Shown: positions 5,216 through 47,796 of the stretch, one piece after another
Layout of the letters: every line of letters starts with the position of its first letter
Numbering within the stretch: the first letter of the stretch is position 1
NCBI GenBank assembly: GCA_964543265.1
Contig: CAZIWN010000001.1
Location: 104,577-168,576, forward strand
Length of the DNA: 64,000 bases
Direction: 5' to 3'
DNA from: an uncultured Candidatus Saccharibacteria bacterium
GTDB lineage: Bacteria; Patescibacteriota; Minisyncoccia; UBA6257; 1-14-0-10-40-38
Program-made: the position numbers and the translations under genes
The notes under the pieces: generated by a model
The model's input: only the letters and a program-made list of their open reading frames with translations
Databases searched by the model: none
Told to the model about the DNA's origin: nothing

Positions 5216-6310
5216 ATGGCAGACGATTACTATAAAATTTTAGGCGTTGAAAAAAACGCTTCCGAAGAAGATATTAAGCGCGCTTATAGAAAAATGGCCC
5301 ACAAACATCACCCAGATAAATCTGGTGGCGATGAGGCCGCTTTTAAAAAGGTAAACGAGGCTTATCAAATTCTTTCTAATAAGGAAAAGCGTGCTCAATA
5401 CGATAAGTATGGTCGCGTTTTTGAGGGCGGCCAAGGGGGTGGTTTCAACGGCTTTCATGGTGGCAATCCTTTCGGCCAAGGAGGTTTTAATTTTGATTTC
5501 GGAAATATGGAAGATTTGGGCGATATGTTCGGCTCAATTTTCGAGGGTTTTGGAATGGGTGGCAAGCGCAAACAATATGAGCGCGGCGCCGATCTGGAAA
5601 TTCATCAAGAAATAGCTTTAAAAGAAGCCTATACGGGTATTGTTAAGAAACTTAAATTCAGCACAAAAATCAGTTGCGATAAATGTTCCGGAGTCGGACA
5701 CTTCCCAGAAAGCGGTTTCACTAAATGCGCCACCTGCGACGGCAAAGGAGAAATTAAAGAAACCAAGAGAACTTTCTTCGGTAATTTTGCCGAAGTTAGA
5801 AAATGCTCTAAATGTCGTGGGTTAGGCAAAATTCCTCATCGTCTCTGTTCTTCTTGTGAGGGTTTAGGTAGGCGAGTTGGAGAAAAAAATGTTGAGGTTA
5901 ATATTGGAGCCGGAATTGAGGATGGGCAGATTATAAAAGTAAATGGAGCCGGAGAATCTGGCGAGGCGGGAACTGACCCAGGGGACTTATATGTCAGAAT
6001 TAAGGTTTTAAAAGATAAAAAGTGGGAAAGACGAGGAGATGATCTTTTAGCTAGGCACGAAACAAGTTTAATAGATTTACTTATAACCAGATCTTTTGAG
6101 GTAGAAAATATTATAGGAGAAAAAATAAAATTAGAGCTTCCTGGAGGATTTAAGCTTGGAGATGAATTAGTTGTCTCTGGTGGTGGAATGCCCCGTCTAG
6201 GAGGATTTAGCAGGGGAAAGATGATTATTAAGCTAGAAGCTCAAATTCCAAAGAAATTAAATTCAAAAGCTAAAGAATTACTCGAACAACTTAAAAGAGA
6301 AGTAGATTAA
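5216..6310 (+). CDS. dnaJ: Chaperone DnaJ.
   Basis: J-domain with HPD (YYKILGV...HPDK), a G/F-rich linker and four CxxCxGxG zinc-finger repeats. Confidence 0.95.
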
Positions 6311-6317
6311 ATTTAAA

Positions 6318-6357
6318 ACCGCCTCCTGCATCTCGTTGGTGCAGTGGCGGTTTTTTG
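6318..6357 (+). terminator. Rho-independent terminator of the dnaK operon.
   Basis: Stem ACCGCC...GGCGGT followed by TTTTTT. Confidence 0.8.
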
Positions 6358-6363
6358 TTTGTA

Positions 6364-6483
6364 TCATCCCGTTGCAATAAACCACAGAATGATGAGAAAG
6401 ATGATGGTTGACCATCTCATGTTGAGGATCGAGCACTTCCATGGCTCAGGTTCGCTTACTGTTGGTTCTGGTCGCCTTTTCAT
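6364..6483 (-). CDS. 39-aa hydrophobic peptide (MKRRPEPTVSEPEPWKCSILNMRWSTIIFLIILWFIATG) in a GC-elevated segment.
   Basis: SD site AAGGGGG lies 6 nt upstream of the ATG. The C-terminal half is hydrophobic. It is absent from the 60-aa ORF track and I translated it by hand. Confidence 0.35.
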   Translation of the reverse strand: MKRRPEPTVSEPEPWKCSILNMRWSTIIFLIILWFIATG

Positions 6484-6522
6484 TTTTAACCCCCTTAATC
6501 TAATGAACTAATTTTATTATAT

Positions 6523-6585
6523 AAATTAAAACCACCCACAGCAACCGTAGTCGCTGGGGTGGTTCTGCGTCAGATTGTCTGACGC
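6523..6585 (-). terminator. Two tandem hairpins downstream of the islet lipoprotein gene: GCGTCAGA/TCTGACGC, then CCACCC...GGGTGG followed by a T-tract on the minus strand.
   Basis: Perfect 8-bp and 6-bp stems. The minus-strand sequence continues as TTTTAATTT. Confidence 0.6.
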
Positions 6586-6878
6586 TAGTTCGTCGCGGAG
6601 ATGGTCTCCGCGAGGCGCTCGAGGCCATCGTTCAGCTTCTCGAGGCCGTCGATGATCTTCTCCATCTCGATCGTCTGCTCGCGCATCCGCTCGAGATCGG
6701 TGTCGTCGCTCTTGACGACGTTCGGCAGCATGCGGTCGCGCATCTCGTCGTAGGCCTCCACCTTCTTCGTCGGCACCTCCTCCTTGGCGGGGGAGACGCA
6801 GCCGACGGACAGGAGGCAGAAGAAGGCGGCGATCCAGAACCCGTAGTTGAACGCGAGCATGTTTCGAAGCAAACGCAT
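6585..6878 (-). CDS. Small secreted or lipoprotein-like protein of 97 aa, GC-rich codons.
   Basis: Signal peptide with a lipobox-like LLSVGC. SD site CAAGGGAAAGGGAAAG is upstream of the ATG, and a consensus promoter lies upstream on the minus strand. Confidence 0.55.
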   Translation of the reverse strand: MRLLRNMLAFNYGFWIAAFFCLLSVGCVSPAKEEVPTKKVEAYDEMRDRMLPNVVKSDDTDLERMREQTIEMEKIIDGLEKLNDGLERLAETISATN

Positions 6879-6987
6879 TTTCTTCTTTCCCTTTCCCTTG
6901 GAAAGCTATTCTCTCGCAAGAAGGCGCTCGCCCTCATCGCAAAAGAATGCTTATTTGTTAATGTTCAATCTAACCCTAACCTTTGTA

Positions 6988-7017
6988 ATTATAGCACAAT
7001 ATATTGATATTTGTCAA
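6988..7017 (-). promoter_or_regulatory. Near-perfect sigma70 promoter with extended -10 (TTGACA-18-TGcTATAAT), copy A of the repeated promoter module.
   Basis: Read on the minus strand: CTATTGACAAATATCAATATATTGTGCTATAAT. Confidence 0.7.
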
Positions 7018-7020
7018 TAG

Positions 7021-7074
7021 ATAAGAAAGCCAATAAAATAATAGCCCCGGGTGCGCATTTGCGCATTCCGGGGC
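7021..7074 (-). terminator. Terminator of the 123-aa islet gene: GCCCCGG...CCGGGGC stem with an inner GTGCGCA/TGCGCAT palindrome, followed by a T-rich tract on the minus strand.
   Basis: Read from the sequence. Confidence 0.6.
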
Positions 7075-7080
7075 AGTAGT

Positions 7081-7452
7081 TCAGCTCGAAGCGGTAGCGG
7101 TGGCGGGGAACATCTCGCGAAGTTCCGCGCGAATCTCCTGGGCGAACCTGGTCATCGCCAAGCGCCATTCATCTTCATCGGTATGGATCCTGAGCTTTTT
7201 GGGCCAATACTTCGGGTCGCGCTTGGCCTTGGCCATGTCTGCAAGGTAGACCATCGCATCGAATCCTGTCTTGGCGTTGTTGTCTCCCGGCTTCAGTTCG
7301 AAGTCGAACGACATCTCGCCAATCCCATCGAAATCGGGCGCGGTCACGAAAGCAACGAGCTCTTCGTAGCTTCCAAGACCAAGCCATCCTTCCGGCGCCT
7401 GCTTCTTGCCGGGAAGAAAATGAAGGTCGTCAAGAAAAACATTCCTTTCCAT
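7081..7452 (-). CDS. Hypothetical 123-aa protein, GC-rich codons, unknown function.
   Basis: Clean ORF with SD site AAGGGA upstream of the ATG. Its own promoter (TTGACA-17-TAAACT at 7503-7531, minus strand) and its own terminator flank it. Composition is unlike that of the flanking genes. Confidence 0.5.
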   Translation of the reverse strand: MERNVFLDDLHFLPGKKQAPEGWLGLGSYEELVAFVTAPDFDGIGEMSFDFELKPGDNNAKTGFDAMVYLADMAKAKRDPKYWPKKLRIHTDEDEWRLAMTRFAQEIRAELREMFPATATASS

Positions 7453-7574
7453 TTTTCCCTTGTCTCCGCTTGGGTTTTTCTTTCCCTTAGGTGCTGACGT
7501 ATAGTTTAGCCCAAAACACCCAATTTGTCAAAGTTATATTAATCTACTATCTTATGCTAAAATTACATAAATAA

Positions 7575-7922: not shown

Positions 7923-8558
7923 TTAAATCTTCAAGCAATCTTTTTCGGTATATTCTCCAACCCTAGTTCTAATTAAGGAATATAAATATCCTCCAGTTTT
8001 AAGTTCTGTTCCAAGATTTCTAGCAATAGAGCGTATGTAAACCCCTGGGCCGGTAGTGATCTGTAGTTTTAAAATAGGGAATTGATAAGCTAAGATTTTT
8101 ATATCTTTAACTAATACCTTTCTAGATTTTAATTCAGGGGTTTTTCCTTCGCGAGCATATTCATACAATTTTTTACCCCCAATCTTAATCGCGCTATAAA
8201 GTGGCGGAGTTTGATCAATTTCTCCAATAAATTTTTTTATAGCAAAATCAATTTCTCCACGAGTTGGTTCTTTTTCAAATTTTATTTCCGTTTTCATCCC
8301 TTGTGCGTCATCAGTCTCACTTTCTTCTCCAAGCTTAATTTCAGCAATATATTCTTTTTCCTTTTGAACTTCTGTTGAGAGTTTTTTAGTAAATTCTTTT
8401 CCCACAGCAATCACTAAAACACCCTCAGCGAGAGGGTCTAGCGTGCCAGCGTGTCCCACAATCTTTTCTCTGGCAATTCTGCGGACTTTAGCTACTATAT
8501 CGTGCGAAGTTGGTCCTTTCGGTTTCCAAACGCCCACAATTCCTTGTTTAATTAACAT
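7923..8558 (-). CDS. truB: tRNA pseudouridine(55) synthase TruB.
   Basis: Motif GHAGTLDPLAEGVLVIAVGK. Confidence 0.9.
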   Translation of the reverse strand: MLIKQGIVGVWKPKGPTSHDIVAKVRRIAREKIVGHAGTLDPLAEGVLVIAVGKEFTKKLSTEVQKEKEYIAEIKLGEESETDDAQGMKTEIKFEKEPTRGEIDFAIKKFIGEIDQTPPLYSAIKIGGKKLYEYAREGKTPELKSRKVLVKDIKILAYQFPILKLQITTGPGVYIRSIARNLGTELKTGGYLYSLIRTRVGEYTEKDCLKI

Positions 8559-8774
8559 TTATCTTATTTCAATCAATTTCTTCTTATATCGTAACCCAGA
8601 CTTGATAAATAAGCTATTTTTAGGGATTTTTAGATATTCTGCCAATATTTCAATCACTTTCAAGTTTGCCTCCATATCCTTAGCTTTTGCTTTAGTTTCT
8701 ATCTTATAAGAATTTTCTCCAATCTTTAAAATAGAATCCTTTTTCGCGTTAGTTTTTACGGTTATTTCAATCAT
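8559..8774 (-). CDS. DUF167/YggU-family small protein.
   Basis: Pattern I.VKV.P.AKK..I.....Y.I...A.A.D.EAN..VIE.LA..L. Confidence 0.55.
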   Translation of the reverse strand: MIEITVKTNAKKDSILKIGENSYKIETKAKAKDMEANLKVIEILAEYLKIPKNSLFIKSGLRYKKKLIEIR

Positions 8775-8804
8775 ATTTTATGATTATGGCACGTTATATT
8801 TTTT

Positions 8805-8911: not shown

Positions 8912-9421
8912 ATGCCGGCAACCGCAACAATGATCGAAGTCTTCCAGATTCTCGGATTGGAGATGATAAAGCGTCCAGTTTTTTCGGATCTGCTTCCAAA
9001 AACTGGATGCGTGCCAGATAAGAGAATCACGGAACAAGTAATGGGCGAGCCGTATTCTCTATCAGCTACAAGAGATGACCATTGGCGATCCGGAACAAGA
9101 GAAATCGCTCTAGTTGAACATCCGCCAGTTTGGTCAATGTCTACTGTCTGCGCGAATTCAGCCAAGCTCGGTCTGGGTCTATTGGATCCATACGATGTTC
9201 TATATTTCGCCATCAAGCATCCAGGGGTCCAAAGGTCTGGCCCAATCGCCTTCGTTCATCAGCCGCTTTTTCTAGGCGAGAACCGGAGAGGCCTTTTTGC
9301 TCTCGTTCTCGGTTTTGATGGGCAAGACAGAACCATTAATCTTGTCAGCTGGTTCGATACTTGTGATGCCGTTCCCGGAGTTCGCTACGCCCTTTTGAAG
9401 AGGCCAGAGAAGAAGAAGTAG
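8912..9421 (+). CDS. Hypothetical 169-aa protein, intermediate to high GC, unknown function.
   Basis: Strong SD site AAGGGGGAG lies 7 nt upstream of the ATG, and a terminator follows the ORF. Its composition is foreign to the host. Confidence 0.55.
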   Translation: MPATATMIEVFQILGLEMIKRPVFSDLLPKTGCVPDKRITEQVMGEPYSLSATRDDHWRSGTREIALVEHPPVWSMSTVCANSAKLGLGLLDPYDVLYFAIKHPGVQRSGPIAFVHQPLFLGENRRGLFALVLGFDGQDRTINLVSWFDTCDAVPGVRYALLKRPEKKK

Positions 9422-9433
9422 TTCAAGGTCTCA

Positions 9434-9474
9434 AAATCCCGCGCATGAGGTAAGTCCAAAGCGCGGGTTTTTTA
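9434..9474. terminator. Bidirectional terminator CCCGCGC...GCGCGGG flanked by A- and T-tracts.
   Basis: Sits between convergent genes. Confidence 0.75.
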
Positions 9475-9885
9475 ATTCAAAAACAAATACGCCCAAATTG
9501 CTACGAAAAGAATGGGCAAAAATAGGAGCCAATTCCATAAGCGGTTTTTTCCAATCAAAACATCTTTAACAGATCCTTCTTTATGTGGCCACATCTGAAA
9601 ATCTTCATATCCAAGTTCTTTTTCAATCGCCCCGATTCTTCTAATCCAGGCATCTCTCCAAAGTTTCTGTTTCCTTAATAAGAAAAACCAATAGAAAGAC
9701 AGGATTAATCCCGTAAGCTGGGCGATATGTAGATATTCTGGGCTGACTTTGCCGGCAAATATCGCCACAAAGATGGCGCTTTCAATCGCAAAGAAAAAAT
9801 TGTATAGGCGATACAGCCCATCTATTTCAGATCGAACTTGAGCGATAAACCGATCATACTGCTTCTCCAAAAATTCTTTATTCAT
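9472..9885 (-). CDS. Hypothetical membrane protein of 137 aa.
   Basis: Two to three TM helices. The start overlaps the upstream gene by ATGA. Confidence 0.5.
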   Translation of the reverse strand: MNKEFLEKQYDRFIAQVRSEIDGLYRLYNFFFAIESAIFVAIFAGKVSPEYLHIAQLTGLILSFYWFFLLRKQKLWRDAWIRRIGAIEKELGYEDFQMWPHKEGSVKDVLIGKNRLWNWLLFLPILFVAIWAYLFLN

Positions 9886-11442: not shown

Positions 11443-12048
11443 CTATGTCTTATCTTTTCTAAATTTTCTAAGCACAAAATATAAAATCACCACAAACACC
11501 GCCCCAGAGACATCCATCAGCATATCTTTTTGTGCATCCCAAATATCTCCCTGCGAACCCAAGAAAGCCGCCCCAGCATCTCCTCCCCAAATTTCTGCAT
11601 ATATCCACTCAATCCATTCATAAAGAACTGCCACAAAAGATATGGTAAAAATCGCATAAGTTGAAGCAATCCATTTTTTAGCCACAAGATTTCTACTTAA
11701 AAGATATTCCATTATAGGCAGGGCATAGAAGCCAACGGTAAAATGGGCAACTCGGTCAAACATATTCCTCTCAAAACCAAATAAATTTCCAAACCAATCA
11801 AATGGAACTTTTTCAAAAGTATAGTGTCCACCGATGGTATGTAAAAACGGCAAGACAAACATAAAAGCATAAGCCGTATTAGAAAAACGAATATTCTTAA
11901 AGTATAAAAATACGATAAAAGCGACGAGTATAAAAATCGGCCCATTCTCCGCATACCAAACATCTCGCGAAAATGGATGAATTCCCGCAATTATAAATTC
12001 AATAACATATATAGCCAGTAATAAGTGCGGAAAATACTTTTTAAGCAT
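11443..12048 (-). CDS. DUF2238/YjdF-family membrane protein.
   Basis: Motif GGHYTFEKVPF..W......RN.FDR..HF..GF. Confidence 0.5.
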   Translation of the reverse strand: MLKKYFPHLLLAIYVIEFIIAGIHPFSRDVWYAENGPIFILVAFIVFLYFKNIRFSNTAYAFMFVLPFLHTIGGHYTFEKVPFDWFGNLFGFERNMFDRVAHFTVGFYALPIMEYLLSRNLVAKKWIASTYAIFTISFVAVLYEWIEWIYAEIWGGDAGAAFLGSQGDIWDAQKDMLMDVSGAVFVVILYFVLRKFRKDKT

Positions 12049-12053
12049 TACCT

Positions 12054-13205
12054 TTATTTAATCACTTTCGCCACAGTCTTCACAAGTCGTTTATCAAAAA
12101 TCTTTGGCACGATATTTTGCTCTGTTGGTTTCTTAATTAATTTAGCAATTTCTCTCGCGGCTTTAATTTTCATCTCATCAGTTATTTTATTGACTCTATT
12201 ATCTAAGGCGCCCCTAAATACTCCAGGGAACACTTGCGCATTATTAAGCTGATTTGGAAAATCGCTTCTTCCAGTTGCCACAATTCTCGCTCCGGCTTTA
12301 AGTGCCTCCTCTGGCATAATCTCTGGCACTGGGTTGGCCAAAGTAAAAACGATCGAATCTTTATTCATAGAAGCGATCATCTCTGGGGTAACCAAATTCG
12401 GCCCAGAAACGCCGATAAATACATCGGCACCCATAAATGCGTCACTTGCCGTGCCAGTTTTATTATCTCTATTAGTAATAGAAGCTAATTCTGCTTTTTC
12501 TGCGGTTATGTCAGCGCGGTTTTTATGAATTATTCCAGAACGATCCAAAACTAAAATATTTTTAACTCCCGCCAAAAGCAAAATCTTAGTTATTGCCGTT
12601 CCAGCTGCTCCGGCTCCACTAATAACAACTCTCACATTTTCAATTTTCTTTTTTACCACCTTCAAAGCATTTAATAATCCTGCTAAAACAATAATTGCCG
12701 TGCCGTGTTGATCATCGTGCATCACTGGAATTGATAATTCTTCTTTTAATCTCCTTTCAATTTCAAAACATCGCGGAGCAGAAATATCTTCCAAATTAAT
12801 TCCTCCAAAAGCAGGGGATATCGCTTTTATGGTTTTTATTATCTCTTCTGTGTCTTGGGTATTTAAAACAATCGGCACCGCATCGATATTGGCAAACTTT
12901 TTAAACAACAAACATTTCCCCTCCATCACTGGCAACGCTCCTTCTGGACCAATATTCCCTAAGCCTAAAACTGCCGAACCGTCGGAAATCACCGCCACGC
13001 TATTTCCTTTCATTGTATAGTCTCGTGTCTTTTCTTTATTTTTGGCCACAAACGAACTCACCGCTCCAACTCCAGGGGTATAAGCCAAGCTCAAATCTTC
13101 CATATTGCGAATCGGCACCTTGCTTTCAATTGCAAAAACTCCAGTATGTTTTAAATGTAGCGCCAAAGATTTTTTATTTATCTTTTCAAGATTTCTTTTT
13201 TTCAT
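12054..13205 (-). CDS. NAD(P)-dependent malic enzyme, short form.
   Basis: Motif LAYTPGVG...ISDGSAVLGLGNIGPEGALPVMEGK, plus a Rossmann fold GAGAAG. Confidence 0.9.
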   Translation of the reverse strand: MKKRNLEKINKKSLALHLKHTGVFAIESKVPIRNMEDLSLAYTPGVGAVSSFVAKNKEKTRDYTMKGNSVAVISDGSAVLGLGNIGPEGALPVMEGKCLLFKKFANIDAVPIVLNTQDTEEIIKTIKAISPAFGGINLEDISAPRCFEIERRLKEELSIPVMHDDQHGTAIIVLAGLLNALKVVKKKIENVRVVISGAGAAGTAITKILLLAGVKNILVLDRSGIIHKNRADITAEKAELASITNRDNKTGTASDAFMGADVFIGVSGPNLVTPEMIASMNKDSIVFTLANPVPEIMPEEALKAGARIVATGRSDFPNQLNNAQVFPGVFRGALDNRVNKITDEMKIKAAREIAKLIKKPTEQNIVPKIFDKRLVKTVAKVIK

Positions 13206-14115: not shown

Positions 14116-14216
14116 TGTTGGATAAATCATTAAGCTAACCTTCTCCTGAGTTGGAGAAAAGGGTCTGCTGGTCACCCTAAAAGACTAGCAACGGTTCTTT
14201 GACAAGGGAGAGAGTC

Positions 14217-14417
14217 ATGAACAGTCACATGCACCCGCACGATCACGATCACGGCGTTCGCGCTTCCGACGATCGGCATCACGGTGTTCACGGCGACCAC
14301 AGTGATCACAGCGACAGTGGCCACAGGCACCACAGGGGTGCGCACGGTCACGATCACAAGGCGCACGGTCACCACCACGGGTCGGTCCACAAGCAGAAGA
14401 GGGGCGGCGCGCACTGA
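14217..14417 (+). CDS. Histidine-rich 66-aa peptide (about 38% His) with GC-rich codons; likely metal binding.
   Basis: SD site AAGGGAG lies 6 nt upstream of the ATG at 14217. The run is MNSHMHPHDHDHG...HGHDHKAHGHHHGSVH. A terminator follows. Confidence 0.55.
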   Translation: MNSHMHPHDHDHGVRASDDRHHGVHGDHSDHSDSGHRHHRGAHGHDHKAHGHHHGSVHKQKRGGAH

Positions 14418-14775: not shown

Positions 14776-14781
14776 TGCGGC

Positions 14782-14851
14782 TGCGGGACCTGGGCTCGAA
14801 CCAGGATACCAGCTTTCAGAGAGCTGTGTCCTACCATTAGACGATCCCGCA
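14782..14851 (-). tRNA. tRNA-Gln (anticodon CUG) with a U1:A72 pair; CCA is not encoded.
   Basis: Cloverleaf folded by hand: acceptor TGCGGGA/TCCCGCA, U8, anticodon stem CAGCT/AGCTG with loop CTCTGAA, and T-arm CTGG TTCGAGC CCAG. Confidence 0.8.
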
Positions 14852-25414: not shown

Positions 25415-25456
25415 GTGCCACCTCCAGCGCTTGCGCTAAATAGGTGGCACTTTTTC
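25415..25456. terminator. Terminator GTGCCACCT...AGGTGGCAC followed by TTTTT; also T-rich on the minus strand.
   Basis: 9-bp perfect stem. Confidence 0.8.
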
Positions 25457-25466
25457 TTCCCCGTCT

Positions 25467-25688
25467 TCAGTTCAGGACGGTGACGAATCTCCCGATTGGT
25501 GTGAAGACTTGTTCACCGTCGACGATCTCGAGTTGTCCGAGAACTTCGCCACATCCCGGTACGGGGCAAGAAACGTTTGAGTGTTTGCAGGACGGGGCAG
25601 CGACCTTGCACTGGCCATACCTTCCTTCCCACTTGCAAACGCACCTGATCTGCGTCTCCGCACCGCACTCCTTCTGACTCATCGTCAT
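25467..25688 (-). CDS. Cys-rich 73-aa protein with 8 Cys (CGAETQIRCVCKWEGRYGQCKVAAPSCKHSNVSCPVPGCG) and GC-rich codons.
   Basis: SD site AGGAGG lies 9 nt upstream of the ATG at 25688. It is wedged between a terminator and the rnpB promoter. Confidence 0.5.
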   Translation of the reverse strand: MTMSQKECGAETQIRCVCKWEGRYGQCKVAAPSCKHSNVSCPVPGCGEVLGQLEIVDGEQVFTPIGRFVTVLN

Positions 25689-25761
25689 TTCTTTCCGCCT
25701 CCTGAAGCTGGATTCGAAACTAGACATAATAATAACAATAATTAAGCCAAAAAGGCAAGAT

Positions 25762-25790
25762 TTGTCTATTTTTAATATTTATGGTATACT
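25762..25790 (+). promoter_or_regulatory. rnpB promoter TTGTCT-17-TATACT.
   Basis: Spacing places the transcription start near 25797, which is the first nucleotide of the P1 helix. Confidence 0.55.
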
Positions 25791-25796
25791 TTTAAA

Positions 25797-26141
25797 GTCG
25801 CTTAGGTGATTACACGGCATCGCAAAAAAATGCCGTGAGGAAAGTCTGGACTCCTGTCTTGCGAGAAATCGCAAGTAAACGTACCGGTTAAAAGCCGGCT
25901 GGGTAATCCAAGAGGTGCGAAAAGTGACGCTCAAAGACGAAAGAATTTGAGAATCCGCTTGCGGATTAACCTTCTCTATAGTGAAGGAGAGGGGTGCAAC
26001 GGCTAAATCCTTACGAGGTGCAAGATCGTGCTCTAAATTAAAACTTAGAGAGAATCGCTTGAGCCTTAAAGTAATTTAGGGCCTAGATAAATTATCACCG
26101 CTTCGCCGAAAGGCGGAAACAGAATCCGGCTTATTAGCGAC
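25797..26141 (+). ncRNA. rnpB: RNase P RNA (bacterial type A).
   Basis: Conserved GAGGAAAGUCUGGACUCC (P4 5' strand), ACAGAAUCCGGCUUA (P4 3' strand) and a P1 pairing GTCGCT/AGCGAC, followed by a terminator. Confidence 0.85.
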
Positions 26142-26155
26142 AAAAAATATCAGAA

Positions 26156-26180
26156 GTCCGCGCCTAAAGCGCGGATTTTT
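26156..26180 (+). terminator. rnpB terminator TCCGCGC ctaaa GCGCGGA followed by TTTTT.
   Basis: Read from the sequence. Confidence 0.8.
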
Positions 26181-26196
26181 GATATATGGTTTAATA

Positions 26197-26225
26197 TTGC
26201 TTTTATGACAACAATCTGTTATTAT
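26197..26225 (+). promoter_or_regulatory. Candidate promoter TTGCTT-17-TATTAT for the small membrane ORF.
   Basis: Read from the sequence. Confidence 0.4.
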
Positions 26226-26269
26226 GATTAACAGTTCTTCGGTTAAGGTCATTGGGAGGGAAGGCCTTG

Positions 26270-26458
26270 GTGGAATTCGGAAAGAGGCTTTGCTTCGCTC
26301 TGGTCTGGACTGTTTCCTGGGTTCTTCCGAAGGAATCTAGGGACGAGGAAGAAGAGGTGAGTGGTGTCTTGAAGCTTCTCCTCTTCGCCCTTGTCGGAGT
26401 TGGAACGGCCTTGGTTCTTCACTTCTATCGGATGAGGCAAAACTTCATCCAGATTTGA
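26270..26458 (+). CDS. Small two-TM membrane protein of 62 aa from the GTG start (68 aa if the TTG at 26252 is used), GC-rich.
   Basis: SD site GGGAGGGAAGG lies 5 nt upstream of the GTG. Two hydrophobic helices are separated by an acidic EEEE loop. A terminator follows. Confidence 0.45.
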   Translation: MEFGKRLCFALVWTVSWVLPKESRDEEEEVSGVLKLLLFALVGVGTALVLHFYRMRQNFIQI

Positions 26459-26477
26459 AAGAAGGCCAAGTGTCTCA

Positions 26478-26558
26478 AATGGCGTGCTGCCACCAAGTAG
26501 CGCGCCATTTTTTTTGTAAAAAAAGACCACCCATTACTCGCTCGCGAGCTAGGGTGGT
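26478..26558. terminator. Pair of convergent terminators sharing a central T8/A7 tract: ATGGCG...CGCCAT followed by T8 on the plus strand, and ACCACCC...GGGTGGT followed by a T-tract on the minus strand.
   Basis: Read from the sequence. Confidence 0.65.
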
Positions 26559-26570
26559 TTTCTGTCGCTG

Positions 26571-26789
26571 TTAACGAGGAGTAGTCGCTTCCCCGAACAG
26601 CATCGGTACTTCTATCAGATGCTTTTTATTGCATCCCTTCTTGCATTTCGGATGCGTCGAGCTCCCAAAATATGTATTGCCCTTTGGGATCTTACCACCG
26701 CACCCAGTGCAGGTACGATCCAAATGGGCAACATGATGTTCTGGAACCTCATCATCCTCTTCGTCGCTTCCGCCGTTGCCTCCACGCAT
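26571..26789 (-). CDS. Small zinc-ribbon protein of 72 aa from the ATG (CTGCGGKIPKGNTYFGSSTHPKCKKGC), acidic N-terminus.
   Basis: SD site GGGGAGGG lies upstream of the ATG. Its own promoter TTGAAA-17-TATAGT (26845-26873, minus strand) and its own terminator flank it. Confidence 0.5.
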   Translation of the reverse strand: MRGGNGGSDEEDDEVPEHHVAHLDRTCTGCGGKIPKGNTYFGSSTHPKCKKGCNKKHLIEVPMLFGEATTPR

Positions 26790-26876
26790 TGGGTTCGCCC
26801 TCCCCGTGAATGGATTGATGGTCAAGAAACGTGTACTGATATTTACTATAAAACATTCTTAAATAATTTTCAAAAT

Positions 26877-26920
26877 GAAAAGGCCCGGCTAGAACTATAC
26901 GTTCTATAACCGGACCTTTT
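26877..26920. terminator. Bidirectional terminator with a long imperfect stem GGCCCGGCTAGAAC tatac GTTCTATAACCGGACC, flanked by A4 and T4.
   Basis: Read from the sequence. Confidence 0.65.
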
Positions 26921-26946
26921 GCTCCGTCTTGCGGAGCCGTCGCCTT

Positions 26947-27153
26947 TCAGGCGGTGGCAACTGCGAGTTGCCGGCTCTCGGCGCGGAGCTCTGCGAGTTC
27001 TCCGCTCGAGAACAGATTGAGCAGTTCAGGCCACGTCGGCATCCTGCCGAGCTTCCGAGCCTTCCGCGCGATGATCTGCCGCATCGTGGGCACCGCGACC
27101 TCTTCTGAGCACTGATCGCAACCATTCGCGCAGCACTTGGATTCGCACGCCAT
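26947..27153 (-). CDS. Cys-rich 68-aa protein (N-terminal CESKCCANGCDQC, basic/helical C-terminus).
   Basis: A GGGGGG tract lies 7 nt upstream of the ATG. Copy B of the consensus promoter sits about 90 nt upstream. Confidence 0.5.
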   Translation of the reverse strand: MACESKCCANGCDQCSEEVAVPTMRQIIARKARKLGRMPTWPELLNLFSSGELAELRAESRQLAVATA

Positions 27154-27246
27154 CGTAGTTCCCCCCGAATGCCATTCTGATTTCGCCCTAAGGCTCGTCA
27201 GAGGACTTGTGAATGACTAGGGCCAATCCCTTATCATCACTCCTAT

Positions 27247-27276
27247 ATTATATCATACAATATATTAATTTGTCAA
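27247..27276 (-). promoter_or_regulatory. Near-perfect sigma70 promoter TTGACA-18-TGaTATAAT, copy B of the repeated promoter module.
   Basis: Read on the minus strand: CTATTGACAAATTAATATATTGTATGATATAAT. Confidence 0.7.
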
Positions 27277-27469
27277 TAGATAAAGCATAAAAAGCTAATA
27301 AAATAAGGATTTTAATATAAAAAATCTTAAAAATAAGGATTTTTTAACAACTCCAAATTTTCACCTCTTTACAAATTAAATTTACTTTGATATAATATGG
27401 AAATGAAGGTTGGACTCAAATCGTTATTAATAGTAGCGATGAGTCCAAAAAATAATTTAAAATAACTAT

Positions 27470-29485: not shown

Positions 29486-29496
29486 CCATTTTAAAA

Positions 29497-29526
29497 CCCC
29501 GCATAATGCGGGGTTTTAAATTTGAC
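29497..29526 (+). terminator. Terminator AAAACCCCGC ataat GCGGGGTTTT.
   Basis: Read from the sequence. Confidence 0.8.
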
Positions 29527-29822
29527 GAAGAATCTTTTTAGATTCAAAATTAAAAATAGCACGATCCGAAGGCAACATTTTGCCAAAGGAGAAGAACTTG
29601 GAAAAAACCCTGCCAAGAGAGGAGCGATTTCGCGAGTGGGGAGTCGCAGAAACACTATTTCGCGGCGCATTTCTTATTCTTTGCGGACCGCTAGGATATT
29701 TGATCGGAGGTTTTTTCGTGGGATATTTATTGAATGCTAAGTGACGATCTTCTGCCGCGCGAGTACAGGCGCGGCTTTTAATTTATAACAAAATTATATT
29801 ATTTCTTGTTATAATAATTCCT

Positions 29823-33026: not shown

Positions 33027-34484
33027 ATGGACTCATTAAGAGAAGAAAGAATTAAAAAACTAAACCTGCTTCGCAAGGCCAATATCGATCCATATCCTCC
33101 AAGAATTAAAAGAGATTTTGAAATTAATTCAGTCATATCGAATTTTAATAAATTTACTAAAGCCAAAAAGAAAATTTCTTTAGTTGGGCGCTTGGTTGGT
33201 TTAAGGGTTCAAGGAGCTTTATTTTTCGCTGACTTAAAAGATGAATCTGGAAAGATTCAAATTTTAGGTAAAAAAGATAATCTAAAAAATTTTGATATTT
33301 TTAAAGACGCCATAGATATAGGTGATTTTGTCGAAGTTTCTGGAGTTCCTTTTATTACCAAAAGAGGAGAAAAAAGCATAGAGGCAAAATCAATTAATAT
33401 TATCGTAAAAAGTTTGCGCCCAATACCATCAGATTGGTATGGCATACAAGACATTGAGCTTAAATTAAGAAAAAGATATTTAGATATTTTAGCCAATGAG
33501 GATATAAAAGAATTATTTAAAAAGAAAACTATTTTTTGGGCCACTTTCAGGGATGAATTAAAAAAGGAGGGTTTTTTAGAAGTTGAAACTCCAATTTTAG
33601 AGACTACTCCAGGAGGAGCTGATGCTGAGCCATTTAAGACGCATCACAACGCTCTTGATACTGATTTTTATTTAAGGATATCTTTAGAGATTGCTTTAAA
33701 AAAACTTTTAGTTGCTGGATATGAAAAAATTTTTGAAATAGGCAGAATTTTTAGAAATGAAGGCATAGACGCAGAACACTTACAAGACTATACCCAGATA
33801 GAATTTTATTGGGCTTATAAAGACTACAACGATTTAATGAAATTCATCGAACCTCTTTATAAAAAAATTATTAAAAATACTTTCGGAACTCTAAAAACCG
33901 AATGGAGGGGTATGAAAGTTGATTGGGGGAAAAAATGGCAAAAAATTTCATATTATGATCTTTTCAGAGAAAAATTAAGCATTGATTTAGAAAAAGCTTC
34001 AACCGCCGACCTAGAAAAGAAGGCTAAAAGTTTAAATCTAAAAATAGAACCAAATTTAAATCGTGGAAGATTAATCGATATTCTTTTCAAAACAATTCGC
34101 AAAGAGATTATTCAACCAGTGTTTTTAATCGACCAACCAGCAGAGCTTGAGCCGTTAGCTAAGCGCAATCCAGCTTCTCCTCATAAAGTTGAGAGGATGC
34201 AGATTATTGCTTGTGGAACAGAGCTTGGTAAGGGATTCTCTGAAGCTAATGATCCGTTAGATCAACGCGCTAGATTTGAAGAGCAAATGAAGATGAGGGA
34301 AGCGGGAGATAAAGAAGCTCAGATGTTAGATGAAGAATTTCTAGAAGCTCTTGAATACGGAATGCCTCCAACTGCGGGTTTTGGTATTTCGGAAAGATTA
34401 TTCGCTGTTTTAGCCGATAAACCAGTTCGAGAATGTGTATTTTTCCCTTTAATGAAAAGAGTTTCTAAAAAAGAAGACCAATAA
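33027..34484 (+). CDS. lysS: Lysyl-tRNA synthetase (class II).
   Basis: OB-fold N-terminus, class II motifs and GRIFRNEGID. Confidence 0.9.
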   Translation: MDSLREERIKKLNLLRKANIDPYPPRIKRDFEINSVISNFNKFTKAKKKISLVGRLVGLRVQGALFFADLKDESGKIQILGKKDNLKNFDIFKDAIDIGDFVEVSGVPFITKRGEKSIEAKSINIIVKSLRPIPSDWYGIQDIELKLRKRYLDILANEDIKELFKKKTIFWATFRDELKKEGFLEVETPILETTPGGADAEPFKTHHNALDTDFYLRISLEIALKKLLVAGYEKIFEIGRIFRNEGIDAEHLQDYTQIEFYWAYKDYNDLMKFIEPLYKKIIKNTFGTLKTEWRGMKVDWGKKWQKISYYDLFREKLSIDLEKASTADLEKKAKSLNLKIEPNLNRGRLIDILFKTIRKEIIQPVFLIDQPAELEPLAKRNPASPHKVERMQIIACGTELGKGFSEANDPLDQRARFEEQMKMREAGDKEAQMLDEEFLEALEYGMPPTAGFGISERLFAVLADKPVRECVFFPLMKRVSKKEDQ

Positions 34485-34502
34485 CGGTCTTCTTTTTTAA
34501 TC

Positions 34503-34532
34503 TTGACAATATATCTATTTAGGGAATAAAAT
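34503..34532 (+). promoter_or_regulatory. Consensus-like promoter TTGACA-18-TAAAAT at the start of a GC-rich islet.
   Basis: Read from the sequence. Confidence 0.6.
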
Positions 34533-34590
34533 TAAATTCCACGCGCTTTAAGAGGAAGCGCGCAGAAATCACTTGTCGAAGGGAGATTGA

Positions 34591-34821
34591 ATGGGTGCGA
34601 AGAGGGGATCTACGGTGAGGCAGGGATCTGTTGGCGGCGCCTCTTCTTCTACTGTCTTGAACCGACTGGCTCAACCCGACTGGAAGTTCAAGGGGGTTGA
34701 ACCGATTCGCGGGGCGATGAAGGGGTGCAGGTCTTGCACCTTCGATGGCGTGCCTCACGGTCAGTTCAGGGTGGGTGGTCCGAGGGGCGTCGTCTCCAGG
34801 TGTCCTTGCACGAACAGGTGA
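34591..34821 (+). CDS. Small 76-aa ORF (CRSC...CPC) in a GC-rich islet; coding status uncertain.
   Basis: SD site GAAGGGAG lies 6 nt upstream of the ATG. The Gly/Arg/Ser/Val-rich composition is typical of a random GC-rich translation. A 5' UTR hairpin CGCGCTT/AAGCGCG precedes it and a strong terminator follows. Confidence 0.35.
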   Translation: MGAKRGSTVRQGSVGGASSSTVLNRLAQPDWKFKGVEPIRGAMKGCRSCTFDGVPHGQFRVGGPRGVVSRCPCTNR

Positions 34822-34825
34822 TTTT

Positions 34826-34866
34826 TCAGCCCGGCTTTCCGAAAAGGAAGCCGGGCTGTATAATTT
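34826..34866 (+). terminator. Terminator CAGCCCGGCTTTCC gaaaa GGAAGCCGGGCTG followed by TATAATTTAT.
   Basis: 13-bp near-perfect stem. Confidence 0.8.
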
Positions 34867-34872
34867 ATATAA

Positions 34873-35256
34873 ATGAAAAAAGTTATGGTTTTCGGCGACT
34901 TCGATGGCCTTCATGAGGGTCATAGATTTTTTCTACGAAGCGCCAGAAAGTATGGAGATTATTTAATAGTGGCAGTTTCTCAAGATCATATTATCAAGCA
35001 TTTAAAAGGAGAATATCCAATAAAGAATTTTGCCGAACGCTTTGAGCACTTAGAAAATTATGACGATGTAAATCAAGTTGTCATTGGTGATCCGGAAAAC
35101 TCCCCAATTAATTTGATAAAAAAATATAATCCCGATATAGTTGTCTTATCTAAAAATCAAGAATTTTTACAAAACGAGATAGAAAGAAATTACGAAAATT
35201 TTTCTAAAAAAATTGAATTAAAGATAGTAGACGTTGGAGAAATAAAAATTTATTAA
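34873..35256 (+). CDS. Cytidylyltransferase-like (HxGH) nucleotidyltransferase domain protein (FMN adenylyltransferase-like).
   Basis: Motif VFGDFDGLHEGHRFFL. Confidence 0.55.
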   Translation: MKKVMVFGDFDGLHEGHRFFLRSARKYGDYLIVAVSQDHIIKHLKGEYPIKNFAERFEHLENYDDVNQVVIGDPENSPINLIKKYNPDIVVLSKNQEFLQNEIERNYENFSKKIELKIVDVGEIKIY

Positions 35257-38451: not shown

Positions 38452-38802
38452 TTAGCCCGTAGGCTCAGTATACGTAGCATCAAGAATAAAACTCTTCTTT
38501 TGATCAAAGGTTCCACTGAATTTATCATCTCCGCGCTTAACAGCAATTCTAACAGGAACCCACACGTGTCCGAATGTTGCATCTGCCTTGCGATACATCG
38601 TACAGGTTACCGAAACCGGAAGCAGGCCCTGAGCTGGTCCACGATTTTTAAGACTTAAGGTAAATGTTCTGATGTCCAGAAACCGCGTAGCTTCGATATC
38701 CATAGCATTCCACACGGAGTCATTATCTCCGTCAACCGTGCTAATTGCGATTTGCGTCATCCTGATTGCCAAAAGCACGCCAGCAGCCAAGCTCATTTTC
38801 AT
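38452..38802 (-). CDS. Secreted 116-aa protein (signal peptide MKMSLAAGVLLAIRMTQIAIS), GC-rich codons.
   Basis: SD site GGAG lies 6 nt upstream of the ATG at 38802. Copy C of the consensus promoter lies upstream. Confidence 0.5.
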   Translation of the reverse strand: MKMSLAAGVLLAIRMTQIAISTVDGDNDSVWNAMDIEATRFLDIRTFTLSLKNRGPAQGLLPVSVTCTMYRKADATFGHVWVPVRIAVKRGDDKFSGTFDQKKSFILDATYTEPTG

Positions 38803-38940
38803 CGGACATCTCCTTGTCAAAAGGGGATTCACTCCAGGGGTCAACCCAGAAAGTGGCAGCCATCACGGCAGCACCTTAGAAGCAAGAATAAGTCTTCTTT
38901 CCAAAGTGCCACCGTGACAACCTCTCAATATGCTTATAAA

Positions 38941-38970
38941 ATTATAGCACAATATTACTATAAAAGTCAA
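38941..38970 (-). promoter_or_regulatory. Near-perfect sigma70 promoter TTGACT-18-TGcTATAAT, copy C of the repeated promoter module.
   Basis: Read on the minus strand: CTATTGACTTTTATAGTAATATTGTGCTATAAT. Confidence 0.7.
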
Positions 38971-41389: not shown

Positions 41390-41707
41390 CAAGCGAGTTT
41401 AGAGGTCGCAAGTCAGCCTTCTGACGCCAAAGTTCTCAAGCTCCTTCTTCGCACTTCGCAAGCGTCTTTAGGTCTAAAAAATGGACTCTCGACCTTCATC
41501 GGGAGTTGACCTTCCGTTTTCACTGGTCACAAATCCAGTGACCGCTGGCTAACCGATTACGACCAGGTTATCCGACACGGTGAGTAATCTCTGGGACAAT
41601 TAGATGTAACTAACCAGGGAGCGGTAAGAAATTGCGCCTCAAAAACTCGCGCGGTGCCCCAAGCTTCGAGCAGGGTGAAAGACAACCCTGCTCGAAGCTA
41701 CTTTTTT
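41390..41707 (+). ncRNA. Candidate ncRNA of about 320 nt (GC about 50%), bounded by the consensus promoter and a 15-bp perfect hairpin terminator AGCTTCGAGCAGGGT...ACCCTGCTCGAAGCT followed by T6.
   Basis: No ORF longer than 28 aa on either strand and no SD site. Identity unknown; I found no match to tmRNA, SRP RNA or RNase P RNA motifs. Confidence 0.45.
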
Positions 41708-45332: not shown

Positions 45333-45366
45333 AAAGGCAAATCTTGTATAGATTTGCCTTTTTAAA
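45333..45366 (+). terminator. Terminator GGCAAATCT tgtata AGATTTGCC followed by TTTTT.
   Basis: Read from the sequence. Confidence 0.8.
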
Positions 45367-45379
45367 TACTATATGTTAT

Positions 45380-45638
45380 CCTTATAAGCGTCGGTAGGGC
45401 TGACTTTGTCTTAGCTCTGATAAGTGGGACACTTTGTGCCCACAACGAAATTCGGCGAATAGAGAGGCGTGGTCGCAAGATCACAATAGCTCCTCTCGTC
45501 AGAGTACGAGCAAATCAGCCCTACCGACACCATTTCAAAAACAAGGCACACGGTGCTGCTGGTACCCCCCCGTACCAGACACCGCTGAGTCACTGGTCCG
45601 ACGCTACCCGCAAGGGCGCGCTCGGACCTATTTTTTTA
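45380..45638 (+). ncRNA. Candidate structured ncRNA of about 260 nt. A 14-bp long-range helix (45390-45403 pairing with 45515-45528) encloses 111 nt. Then a GGTAC-C6-GTACC hairpin and a terminator GTCCGA...TCGGAC followed by T7.
   Basis: No credible ORF. Helices read directly from the sequence. Possible promoter TTGTAT-18-TACTAT (45344-45373). Confidence 0.4.
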
Positions 45639-45649
45639 CAATCTTAATT

Positions 45650-45676
45650 AAAACCCCGCCAATCGGCGGGGTTTTC
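45650..45676. terminator. Bidirectional terminator AAAACCCCGCC aatc GGCGGGGTTTT; it also terminates typA.
   Basis: Read from the sequence. Confidence 0.8.
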
Positions 45677-47479
45677 TTATTCAGTTCTCTTTCTTAGCGC
45701 ATTCTTTAAAATTCTTTTTCTTAATCTTATAGATGTTGGAGTGGCTTCTACCAATTCATCATCTCCAATATACTCCAAGGCCTCTTCAAGGGTTAATTTT
45801 TTAGCTGGCACCAAATCATCAGTTACAGCATCTGTTTTTGCTCTAAAGTTAGTCAACTGTTTAGCTTTACAAACATTTACCACCAAATCTTCTGATTTTG
45901 CATTTTGTCCTACAACTTGTCCTTCATAAACATCTTCTGCTGGAGCCACAAACATAACTCCTCTTTCTTGAGAGCTTAATAGAGCATAGGCGGTAGATTT
46001 TCCGGCCTCATGTGCAACCAAGGATCCATGTGGGCTAGTTTCTAATCCCTGTATTTTTGGGAAATATCCAGCGCTTAAACTATTTATAATTCCCATACCT
46101 TTAGTTTCTATAAGTAATTGATTTCTAAATCCAATAAGGCCCCTGGTAGGAATAAAGAAGTGAAACGCCACAGTTCCATTATCAACTGCCATATTTTTCA
46201 TTTCTCCCTTACGTTCACTTATCTTTTGAATAACCATTCCCGAATATTTTTCTGGTGCTTCAATCCAAACATCTTCGAATGGCTCCATGGTTACTCCGTT
46301 TTCTTCATTGAAAATAACTTCTGGTCTCGAAACTTGAAGTTCGTATCCTTCGCGTCTCATTTTTTCAATTAAAATTGAAAGGTGAAGTTCTCCTCTTCCG
46401 CTTACAATAAATTCGTCTGCAGATTTACCCTGCACAACCTGTAGCGCAACATCGCTATCTAATTCTTTCTCTAATCTTTCTTTTAGGTTTCTTGAAGTGC
46501 AATATTCTCCCTCTCTGCCAGCAAAAGGGGACGTATTTACTCCAAAAATCATTTTAACCGTAGGTTTTTCTATAACGATTGGCTTCATTCCTTTTGGATT
46601 TTCAGCTTCAGAAATAGTGTCTCCAATCATAATATTATCCACTCCAGCCACAGCTCCGATATCTCCAGCCACAAGCTCTGGAACTTCAACTTTTCCAAGT
46701 CCCGAAAAGACCATTAAGTTTGTAAGCTTAACTTTAGAAATTTCTCCATTTCTATGAACTACAGAAATCATCTGCCCAGATTTCATCTTTCCAGCAGTCA
46801 CTCTTCCAATTCCAATTTTTCCCTTAAAGTTGTCATAAGCTAAGGAAACAACCATCATTTGTAGTGTTTCATTTATTTCTGCTTTAGGTGTTGGGATGTG
46901 TTTAATAATCTCTTCAATTAATGGTTTAACTCCAGTCATATTCTCAAGTTCTGGGGCCATTCCAGTCTTTCCCAATCTTCCAGAAGCATAAACGATAGGG
47001 AAATTAAGCTGATCGTTATTTGCTCCTAATTCTATAAATAATTCTATAGTTTTTTCTAAAACATAATTAATTCTTGCATTGGGTTTATCAATTTTATTTA
47101 TAACTACAATAATCTTATGTCCCATCGCCAATGCTTTCTTTAAAACGAATCTTGTTTGAGGCATTGGGCCTTCTTGAGCATCGATAAGTAAAAGCGAACC
47201 ATCAGCCATATTTAAAACGCGCTCAACTTCTCCTCCGAAGTCTGCGTGTCCAGGGGTGTCTATGATATTAATTTTATATTCACCATAACGAACAGAAGCA
47301 TTTTTAGAGAATATAGTAATTCCTCTTTCTCTTTCAATTTCGTTAAAGTCCATTATCATCGATCCACCCTCTCCAAGCCTTCCAAGATCAGTTTCGGATT
47401 GTCTCAAAAGCGCATCAACTAAAGTTGATTTTCCGTGGTCGACGTGAGCAATAATTGCGATATTTCTTAAGTTATTCAT
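45677..47479 (-). CDS. typA: Translational GTPase BipA/TypA.
   Basis: G1 motif AIIAHVDHGKSTLVD and an EF-G-like domain organisation. Confidence 0.95.
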   Translation of the reverse strand: MNNLRNIAIIAHVDHGKSTLVDALLRQSETDLGRLGEGGSMIMDFNEIERERGITIFSKNASVRYGEYKINIIDTPGHADFGGEVERVLNMADGSLLLIDAQEGPMPQTRFVLKKALAMGHKIIVVINKIDKPNARINYVLEKTIELFIELGANNDQLNFPIVYASGRLGKTGMAPELENMTGVKPLIEEIIKHIPTPKAEINETLQMMVVSLAYDNFKGKIGIGRVTAGKMKSGQMISVVHRNGEISKVKLTNLMVFSGLGKVEVPELVAGDIGAVAGVDNIMIGDTISEAENPKGMKPIVIEKPTVKMIFGVNTSPFAGREGEYCTSRNLKERLEKELDSDVALQVVQGKSADEFIVSGRGELHLSILIEKMRREGYELQVSRPEVIFNEENGVTMEPFEDVWIEAPEKYSGMVIQKISERKGEMKNMAVDNGTVAFHFFIPTRGLIGFRNQLLIETKGMGIINSLSAGYFPKIQGLETSPHGSLVAHEAGKSTAYALLSSQERGVMFVAPAEDVYEGQVVGQNAKSEDLVVNVCKAKQLTNFRAKTDAVTDDLVPAKKLTLEEALEYIGDDELVEATPTSIRLRKRILKNALRKRTE

Positions 47480-47526
47480 ATTGGGTTGAGCGTTTATTCT
47501 ACTATATTTTGATTTAAAGAGTCAAT

Positions 47527-47554
47527 TTGACTAAAGATAATATTTGTCTATAAT
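47527..47554 (+). promoter_or_regulatory. Consensus promoter TTGACT-16-TATAAT.
   Basis: Read from the sequence. Confidence 0.6.
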
Positions 47555-47791: not shown

Positions 47792-47796
47792 GCCAA

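Follow-up and report, generated by a model that had tools for sequence, protein, structure and literature searches.

Islet 5 is a GC-rich block at positions 26190-27300 of a 64-kb stretch of DNA from an uncultured Candidatus Saccharibacteria bacterium (GenBank assembly GCA_964543265.1, contig CAZIWN010000001.1, positions 104,577 to 168,576 of the forward strand). The whole stretch is referred to here as the window, and all coordinates are window positions unless another genome is named. Islet 5 probably consists of three real, independently transcribed and lineage-restricted micro-protein genes in the chromosome of a candidate phyla radiation (CPR) bacterium, which would belong to a moron-like class of GC-rich units. 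It holds three monocistronic units, open reading frame 1 (ORF1) on the plus strand and ORF2 and ORF3 on the minus strand. The predicted product of ORF1 is a small membrane peptide, and that of ORF2 is acidic at its N-terminus and resembles a C4 zinc ribbon. ORF3 is predicted to encode a protein that starts with a cysteine cluster, continues into three helices, and ends in a conserved tail rich in Ala. Units of the proposed class would each be built of a strong sigma-70-type promoter, a Shine-Dalgarno (SD) sequence, a gene for a small secreted, membrane, or Cys/His-rich product, and a terminator of their own, and they may occupy intergenic slots between housekeeping genes, where they would be gained, lost, or swapped among related genomes. 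The genes flanking the region are indeed of the housekeeping type, namely, fmt, def, an S41 peptidase gene, the genes for L9 (rplI) and L27 (rpmA), and a PolB-like exonuclease gene. The window has a GC content of 35.0%, and a composition scan found about a dozen short GC-rich islets in it. Comparisons rest on two genomes, that of the window and L003, a metagenome-assembled genome of a congeneric relative (Candidatus Paceibacterota) from deep Lake Baikal. Among public genomes that carry the neighboring gene, L003 is the closest, and it places the organism of the window in Candidatus Paceibacterota and hence in the CPR. The features of islet 5 are as follows.

26197..26225, plus strand: candidate weak ORF1 promoter, TTGCTT-17-TGtTATTAT, read by eye
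26254..26260, plus strand: ORF1 SD sequence, GGGAGGG, 6 nucleotides (nt) upstream of TTG 26267
26252/26267-26458, plus strand: ORF1, 63 amino acids (aa) from TTG 26267, or 68 aa if started at TTG 26252
26477..26515, plus strand: ORF1 intrinsic terminator from the terminator scan, hairpin 26477-26510 with a 14-bp stem, T8 at 26508-26515
26518..26558, minus strand: ORF2 intrinsic terminator from RNA folding, stem ACCACCC/GGGTGGT at 26526-26558, U7 corresponding to A7 at 26518-26524
26571..26789, minus strand: ORF2, 72 aa from ATG, acidic N-terminus, CxxC-x18-CxxxC
26798..26805, minus strand: ORF2 SD sequence, GGGGAGGG, 8 nt upstream of ATG
26845..26873, minus strand: ORF2 promoter from the promoter scan, TTGAAA-17-TATAGT, 10/12 matches
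26862..26937, minus strand: ORF3 terminator region from RNA folding, hairpins 26921-26937 (small) and 26879-26919 (main) and a U-rich tail
26947..27153, minus strand: ORF3, 68 aa, begins MACESKCCANGCDQC, N-terminal Cys cluster, C-terminal RQLAVATA
27161..27166, minus strand: SD-like G-run of ORF3, 7 nt upstream of ATG, in a CGGGG block kept in L003
27218..27236, minus strand: invariant 19-nt box in the ORF3 5' untranslated region (5'UTR), TAGGGCCAATCCCTTATCA on the plus strand, top of a 5'-terminal hairpin
27247..27276, minus strand: ORF3 promoter, TTGACA-18-TGaTATAAT, perfect consensus, 12/12 matches

The L003 genome carries ORF1 to ORF3 together with a fourth micro-gene, ORF4, and rnpB, the gene for RNase P RNA, and their order and orientation match those in the window. 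The preliminary description of this DNA had already recognized three separate small genes, each with its own SD sequence and terminator, and this part of it is borne out, with the layout also kept in L003. The possibility that the frames are disrupted in raw reads, which it had raised, was also addressed. The frames are intact, and two independent Logan assemblies from different samples show 100% identity to the window across the region, which excludes assembly or sequencing error for the ORFs. The frames, starts, SD sequences, and stops of ORF1 to ORF4 are intact in both genomes. A GGAGG-like SD sequence lies 6 to 9 nt upstream of the start of ORF1, ORF2, and ORF3 in both genomes, and the same is true of ORF4 if its internal ATG is used. 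The SD sequence of ORF1 corresponds to GGAGAAAG in L003, at an equal distance to the start, and that of ORF2 corresponds to GGGAGG, 8 nt from the start. For ORF1, the start that is kept in L003 is TTG 26267 (CTTGGTGGAA), and the frame and stop are conserved too, the sole indel between the two orthologs being one of 6 nt.

The promoter scan found 10 promoter-like sites in the region versus 3.1 ± 1.8 in shuffled sequences. A promoter for each gene had also been claimed, and this holds for ORF3, with its perfect promoter, and for ORF2, with a good one. ORF1 has only the weak candidate listed above, which lies under the threshold of the promoter scan and was not reported by it, while its -35 hexamer and spacing are kept in L003 (65% identity). 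Transcription of ORF1 by read-through from rnpB is possible. The block at 27241-27280, which contains the ORF3 promoter, is 75% identical to L003, and the -35 element of the ORF2 promoter sits inside the U-tract of the ORF3 terminator. The terminators are likewise conserved, each in its own way. At the ORF1 terminator, L003 has a hairpin of different sequence at the matching place, followed by an identical T8. The ORF2 terminator of L003 has an identical outer stem and T-tract and a different loop (90% identity for the terminator arm). The consensus fold of the ORF3 terminator and its L003 counterpart has 15 pairs, 3 of which are kept despite changes on both sides. The two central terminators had been described as sharing one A/T tract in an unusually economical layout, but T8 (26508-26515) and A7 (26518-26524) abut as T8-GT-A7 and belong to separate hairpins, so that the layout is that of two ordinary convergent terminators placed back to back. 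Back-to-back convergent terminators are common in compact genomes. The arrangement resembles known convergent or bidirectional intrinsic terminators in its two facing hairpins and abutting T8/A7 tracts, the core of which is kept in L003, and it differs from them in having two separate hairpins rather than a single common bidirectional one.

This arrangement bears directly on the suggestion that islet 5 is a toxin/immunity or toxin-antitoxin module, in which the Cys-rich proteins would be partners of the membrane peptide, itself a toxin or an immunity factor. A small membrane peptide does lie beside small soluble proteins, the genes diverge fast, as genes involved in conflict do, a cREC_REC conflict-system domain is encoded in another islet, and the Ala-rich tail of ORF3 may resemble the protease degrons of labile antitoxins. 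Each gene, however, is a transcription unit by itself. ORF1 and ORF2 run toward each other, and terminators separate every unit from the next. A terminator and a promoter lie between ORF3 and ORF2, which does not fit a type II toxin-antitoxin operon. As far as sequence signals alone indicate, transcription of ORF2 toward ORF1 would stop at the ORF2 terminator with no predicted overlap, and the antisense overlap of a type I arrangement is not evident. With no cotranscription and no toxin, antitoxin, immunity, or defense family matched in Pfam, PADLOC, NCBIfam, or PHROGs, a module of this kind is distinctly unlikely. The three products would instead act separately, each from a unit of its own.

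The three ORFs are very probably translated, as judged from the two genomes, because their frames and SD sequences, the cysteines of ORF2, and the terminal octapeptide of ORF3 are conserved in L003. The flanks of the region have about 76% nucleotide identity between the window and L003, and the counterpart of 26242-27200 has no blastn match at all. The four ORF pairs nevertheless align end to end as proteins with 36 to 43% identity and E values of 4e-8 to 8e-15. The L003 ortholog of ORF1 (8604-8789) shows 38% identity (E=4e-8 by BLASTP), that of ORF2 (8930-9151) shows 39% (E=4e-12), and that of ORF3 (9315-9530) shows 36% (E=4e-8). Between the two genomes, the final eight codons of ORF3 (RQLAVATA) have three synonymous and no nonsynonymous changes, and ORF2 keeps C27, C30, C49, and C53 and a VPEHH motif invariant.

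The units might alternatively be structured noncoding RNAs, or RNAs that act mainly as such, which are GC-rich like rnpB and whose ORFs are by-products. The whole units fold better than shuffled sequences, with z scores of -4.5 to -5.9, and selection on an RNA would account for the kept GC-richness. Once the terminators are removed, however, the z scores become weak and discordant between the orthologs (window/L003: -3.0/-0.4, -3.1/-1.3, and -0.9/-2.2), and the units match no Rfam family even with permissive filters. Conservation is higher in the regulatory and terminal blocks than in the bodies of the ORFs, with 100% identity in the 5'UTR box of ORF3 and 75% in its promoter block versus 49 to 54% in the coding sequences (CDS), as might be expected of RNA genes. 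Against this stand the conserved SD sequences and starts, the conserved Cys ligands and hydrophobic pattern, and several conserved residues with synonymous changes only. Structured RNA genes were rejected on these grounds, the excess stability being mostly that of the terminators and inconsistent between orthologs, and we regard them as very unlikely.

Several observations weigh against the interpretation of islet 5 as independent protein-coding genes. Antisense frames are likewise open in both genomes, and stretches of 63 or more codons without a stop number 14 in the region versus 4.6 in shuffled sequences, so that an open frame alone is weak evidence for coding. The mismatch positions show no codon periodicity in a protein-agnostic alignment. 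These two features would also suit RNA genes, although the codon-phase test is uninformative because divergence is near saturation. The units are carried by two genomes only, and hence no statistical ratio of nonsynonymous to synonymous substitution (dN/dS) can be given. The gene calls on the Logan contig contain ORF2 and none of the other three ORFs. The separate action of the three products is argued solely from transcription signals, and the products have no homolog, domain, or confident fold that would back a biochemical role.

The earlier description of ORF2 as a zinc-ribbon-type protein is upheld by the two Cys knuckles, which are invariant in the ortholog as expected of a generic C4 zinc ribbon, and we consider this assignment a sequence-based prediction. 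The best PDB profile match of ORF2 is the eS31 zinc ribbon, which is weak (E=0.12), and its AlphaFold2 (AF2) model is unusable, with a predicted local distance difference test (pLDDT) score of 54. Acidic DEEDDE residues are present in the sequence, and the low-confidence model shows no coiled coil. Membership of the TraR/DksA family (PF01258) was considered and rejected, as the match covers 11 residues only and ORF2 has no Pfam match at E<=10. The resemblance to TraR/DksA (5W1S) lies in the length (72 aa versus 73 aa in TraR), the acidic N-terminal segment, the CxxCGxxIP motif, and a second Cys pair about 18 residues further on. The alignment over 11 residues, however, has an E value of 0.011 for a single comparison, the spacing is CxxC-x18-CxxxC rather than the CxxC-x17-CxxC of the family, and neither TraR nor DksA turned up in the PDB profile search with ORF2. 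The haloarchaeal CPxCG proteins, which are small zinc-finger or zinc-ribbon micro-proteins, offer another comparison. The islet 5 genes are similar to them in encoding products of about 60 to 75 aa, here from monocistronic units, in the literal CPQCG of L003 ORF4, and in the two Cys pairs of ORF2, which are its only strongly conserved residues. They differ in the absence of detected homology, in the CPR host, and in the second knuckle of ORF2, which is CxxxC.

An exhaustive HMMER search with ORF2 of 1.84 billion representatives returned five matches, all of them repeat proteins that sum many weak stretches. Two of these, P0002 and P0004 (about 665 aa each), consist of 8 to 10 module repeats around a nuclease-like core (LDGYC...AFEYQG..H). 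The repeat, DPEHH..L..IA..GGRI..G..Y...TKM.F.D..G..FE..P..VK.G.WSP.E, belongs to no Pfam family and weakly resembles VPEHHVAHL...GGKIPKGNTY of ORF2.

ORF3 had been described as a CxxxCCxxxCxxC protein. The cysteine cluster is present, but only three of its five cysteines are aligned and conserved in the ortholog. Structure prediction fared better here than for ORF2 and gave a moderate AF2 model with three helices (residues 24-35, 41-49, and 52-66; pLDDT of 77 to 86 at residues 21-50), for which a structure search found no significant neighbor. The HNH_repeat family (PF18780) was tried for ORF3 and rejected, with 13.7 bits versus a cutoff of 26, no match for the L003 ortholog, and no HNH domain nearby. 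The 5'UTR box of ORF3 is identical to L003 at 19 of 19 positions, compared with 54% in the CDS, and is unique in the window. Another conserved element of this 5'UTR (27154-27240, minus strand) is the block AGAAUGGCAWUCGGGG, whose upstream AUG opens an 8-codon upstream ORF that overlaps the ORF3 start in L003 and a 49-codon out-of-frame ORF in the window. The description of ORF1 as a peptide with two transmembrane (TM) segments stands in part. In both ORF1 and its L003 ortholog, one strong and one marginal hydrophobic segment lie around an acidic loop, the second being a clear TM helix and the first being short and marginal.

ORF2 and ORF3 are probably small metal-stabilized binding or regulatory proteins, and the rest of each could be free to drift or diversify because only the ligand residues and short motifs would be constrained. 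That the genes instead form a metal-handling set, with Cys-rich metal-binding or chaperone-like proteins and a membrane component, is highly improbable. The Cys cluster of ORF3, the subthreshold metallothionein match of ORF4 (14.7 bits versus a cutoff of 23; E=0.034), and an extremely His-rich ORF in islet 3 point in this direction. The partial conservation of the ORF3 cysteines argues against it, as do the lack of a match of ORF3 to metallothionein (PF00131), the lack of any metallothionein, metallochaperone, or transporter family above threshold, and the lack of an adjacent metal transporter or sensor gene. Both functional ideas of the preliminary description, toxin/immunity and metal handling, are thus without support because no homolog was found in any library. 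The islet 5 products had no above-threshold match in Pfam, PHROGs, PADLOC, or NCBIfam, and PDB profile searches gave nothing significant. A word-indexed search of 5.8 billion clusters yielded no match for ORF2, ORF3, or ORF4. By tblastn, ORF2 and ORF3 had no match in phages, and the conserved islet motifs had none in viral contigs.

The GC-richness of these genes, which the preliminary description had not recognized as an anomaly, is combined with unusually fast divergence. The flanking proteins of the window and L003 share 80 to 97% identity versus 34 to 41% for ORF1 to ORF4, and an alignment of the three units made without regard to the proteins shows 39 to 54% difference at every codon position. 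This is about equal to the divergence at fourfold-degenerate sites of 11 flanking ortholog pairs (51% different). The GC content at third codon positions (GC3) of the islet units is 0.48 to 0.75 in the window and 0.41 to 0.76 in L003 versus 0.26 ± 0.08 for ordinary genes. Its persistence was evaluated with a simple two-state model of relaxation between G or C and A or T (S/W). The calibration used 915 fourfold sites, and the model takes descent to have been vertical after the two lineages split. The GC excess decays by a factor of 0.39 per lineage (bootstrap range, 0.29 to 0.47). The ancestral GC3 needed under neutral decay would be 1.21 for ORF1, 1.54 for ORF3, and 1.19 for ORF4, and 0.75 for ORF2, and the probability of an ancestral GC3 of at most 1 is <=0.009 for ORF1, ORF3, and ORF4. 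Under this model, neutral decay is excluded for these three because their ancestral GC3 would exceed 1, and passive amelioration was rejected as the cause of their GC-richness; ORF2 is compatible with it. Expression-linked codon bias was also rejected, as the GC3 values of L9 (0.25) and L27 (0.34) are ordinary and G-ending and C-ending codons are both enriched in the islet units.

These results bear on whether the units are what is left of GC-rich DNA that was acquired horizontally and is now decaying, still transcribed from captured promoters but with products of little or no function. The near-neutral divergence at all codon positions, the orphan status of the genes, and the gain and loss of islets between relatives would agree with decay. 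The ancestral GC3 values above 1 do not, and AT-biased decay should yield stops, yet all four frames are intact in both genomes and short motifs show synonymous change only, which makes this explanation unlikely. With neutral decay rejected, the GC-richness is, within the model, either maintained, through selection or biased conversion, or a result of allele exchange after the split. The GC-rich composition of the micro-protein genes may thus be kept up actively or renewed by exchange after the species separated. A bolder version of this interpretation, which we hold to be possible although doubtful, is that the lineage keeps genome-wide autonomous micro-gene cassettes whose GC content is actively held far from equilibrium and whose Zn-binding or membrane products diversify at approximately the rate of silent sites. 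The cause could be selection acting on some feature of the transcript or the DNA, GC-biased conversion at slots prone to recombination, or a continual exchange of alleles that is anchored in the conserved promoter and terminator blocks, and such diversification would be expected of factors by which an episymbiont interacts with its host or with phages.

The best-supported placement of ORF1 to ORF4 is in a class of about a dozen moron-like GC-rich accessory units spread over the window. Phage morons are independent promoter-gene-terminator units of foreign composition (PMC3594210). The islet 5 units resemble them in combining one small gene with a promoter and a terminator of its own, in their GC3 of 0.48 to 0.75 versus 0.26 elsewhere, and in the position of islet units, whose flanking genes adjoin each other in the relative or have other contents between them. 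They are unlike phage morons in lying in a bacterial chromosome among housekeeping genes rather than in a phage or prophage, in the lack of phage relatives of ORF2 and ORF3 in the libraries and by tblastn, and in a compositional contrast that persists across the species split with no fading. The (near-)perfect promoter TTGACA-N15-TGnTATAAT occurs in the 64 kb only at 6988-7017, 27247-27276, and 38941-38970, all on the minus strand. These three extended -10 promoters drive GC-rich genes of islets 1, 5, and 8 and show mutual similarity over about 39 nt. At 29486-29822, for example, one slot is filled differently in the two genomes. The window encodes there a TM peptide of about 48 aa, with an SD sequence and terminator, and the L003 counterpart (11868-12648) encodes a 178-aa GC-rich signal-peptide protein.

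The feature deserves follow-up for its combination of fast sequence turnover, persistent GC-richness, and well-conserved expression signals. CPR bacteria have tiny genomes, and much of the biology of their interactions with hosts and phages may lie in unannotated small genes. The micro-gene class, being GC-rich with a strong promoter and its own terminator, could be found in related genomes by composition alone. If active maintenance keeps it GC-rich and its proteins are nearly free to change, it would provide a compact natural case for studying what sets the base composition of single genes. The candidate forces are selection at the mRNA level, biased gene conversion, and the exchange of cassettes. 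If the genes are only lineage-specific orphans, the value would lie in a better annotation of micro-genes and of a subthreshold RNase P RNA.

Two neighboring genes had been missed by the preliminary description, the RNase P RNA gene directly upstream of ORF1 and the micro-gene ORF4 beyond it. With them, the GC-rich block at 25440-27240 comprises five independent transcription units, ORF4, rnpB, ORF1, ORF2, and ORF3.

25467..25688/25727, minus strand: ORF4, 73 aa from an internal ATG with SD sequence AGGAGG, divergent from rnpB
25797..26145, plus strand: rnpB, class A RNase P RNA, Rfam RF00010, 95.5 bits, E=2.6e-29

The rnpB gene has a promoter at 25762-25790 and a terminator, read by eye, at 26157-26180, and its L003 counterpart (8112-8480) scores 83.1 bits. 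Default Rfam annotation would miss the gene in the window because 95.5 bits is just under the gathering score of 100. ORF4 is a GC-rich and Cys-rich micro-gene with seven cysteines in its product. Its ortholog in L003 (7792-8004/8019), which contains CPQCG, shows 43% identity (E=8e-15), and an HSNVxC motif is kept through five consecutive synonymous changes. Among the four ORFs, ORF4 carries the clearest coding signature.

Genes in the other GC-rich islets of the window are as follows.

6364-6483, minus strand: islet 1, 39-aa TM peptide
6585-6878, minus strand: islet 1, 97-aa lipoprotein-like gene, GC3 of 0.95
7081-7452, minus strand: islet 1, 123-aa cREC_REC protein, PF20274 with 38.6 bits versus a cutoff of 27, phrog_1479 with E=6e-11
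14199-14417, plus strand: islet 3, 72-aa extremely His-rich ORF (MNSHMHPHDHDHG...HGHDHKAHGHHHG), no Pfam family
38452-38844: islet gene for a secreted protein
62522-63220, minus strand: in the largest islet (up to 63% GC), 232-aa signal-peptide protein, GC3 of 0.63, no significant Pfam domain
63312-63851, minus strand: in the largest islet (up to 63% GC), 179-aa signal-peptide protein, GC3 of 0.79, no significant Pfam domain

The genes of islet 1 each appear to have their own promoter and terminator, and its cREC_REC gene has no phage or plasmid match by tblastn. The His-rich ORF of islet 3 adjoins the tRNA-Gln gene at 14779-14851. In the GC-rich islets at 34451-35000, 41401-41700, 45351-45750, and 47501-47950, no single ORF is convincing and Rfam shows nothing at E<=1e-3; these islets could be unrecognized signal recognition particle RNA, transfer-messenger RNA, or 6S RNA genes of CPR type or more micro-genes.

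Beyond L003, islet 5 is absent beside the exonuclease gene (30 to 62% identity) in seven metagenome loci and two genome loci, and no deeper alignment could be made because these more distant exonuclease-bearing loci lack it. A distant relative, L004, has an intergenic block of about 53% GC (9251-9825) between murA and the exonuclease gene; Rfam shows nothing for this block at E<=1e-4, and it may be a structured RNA of divergent sequence. In L003, a 669-aa AT-rich gene (5520-7529) lies between the exonuclease gene and a 52-aa TM gene, which are adjacent to each other in the window.

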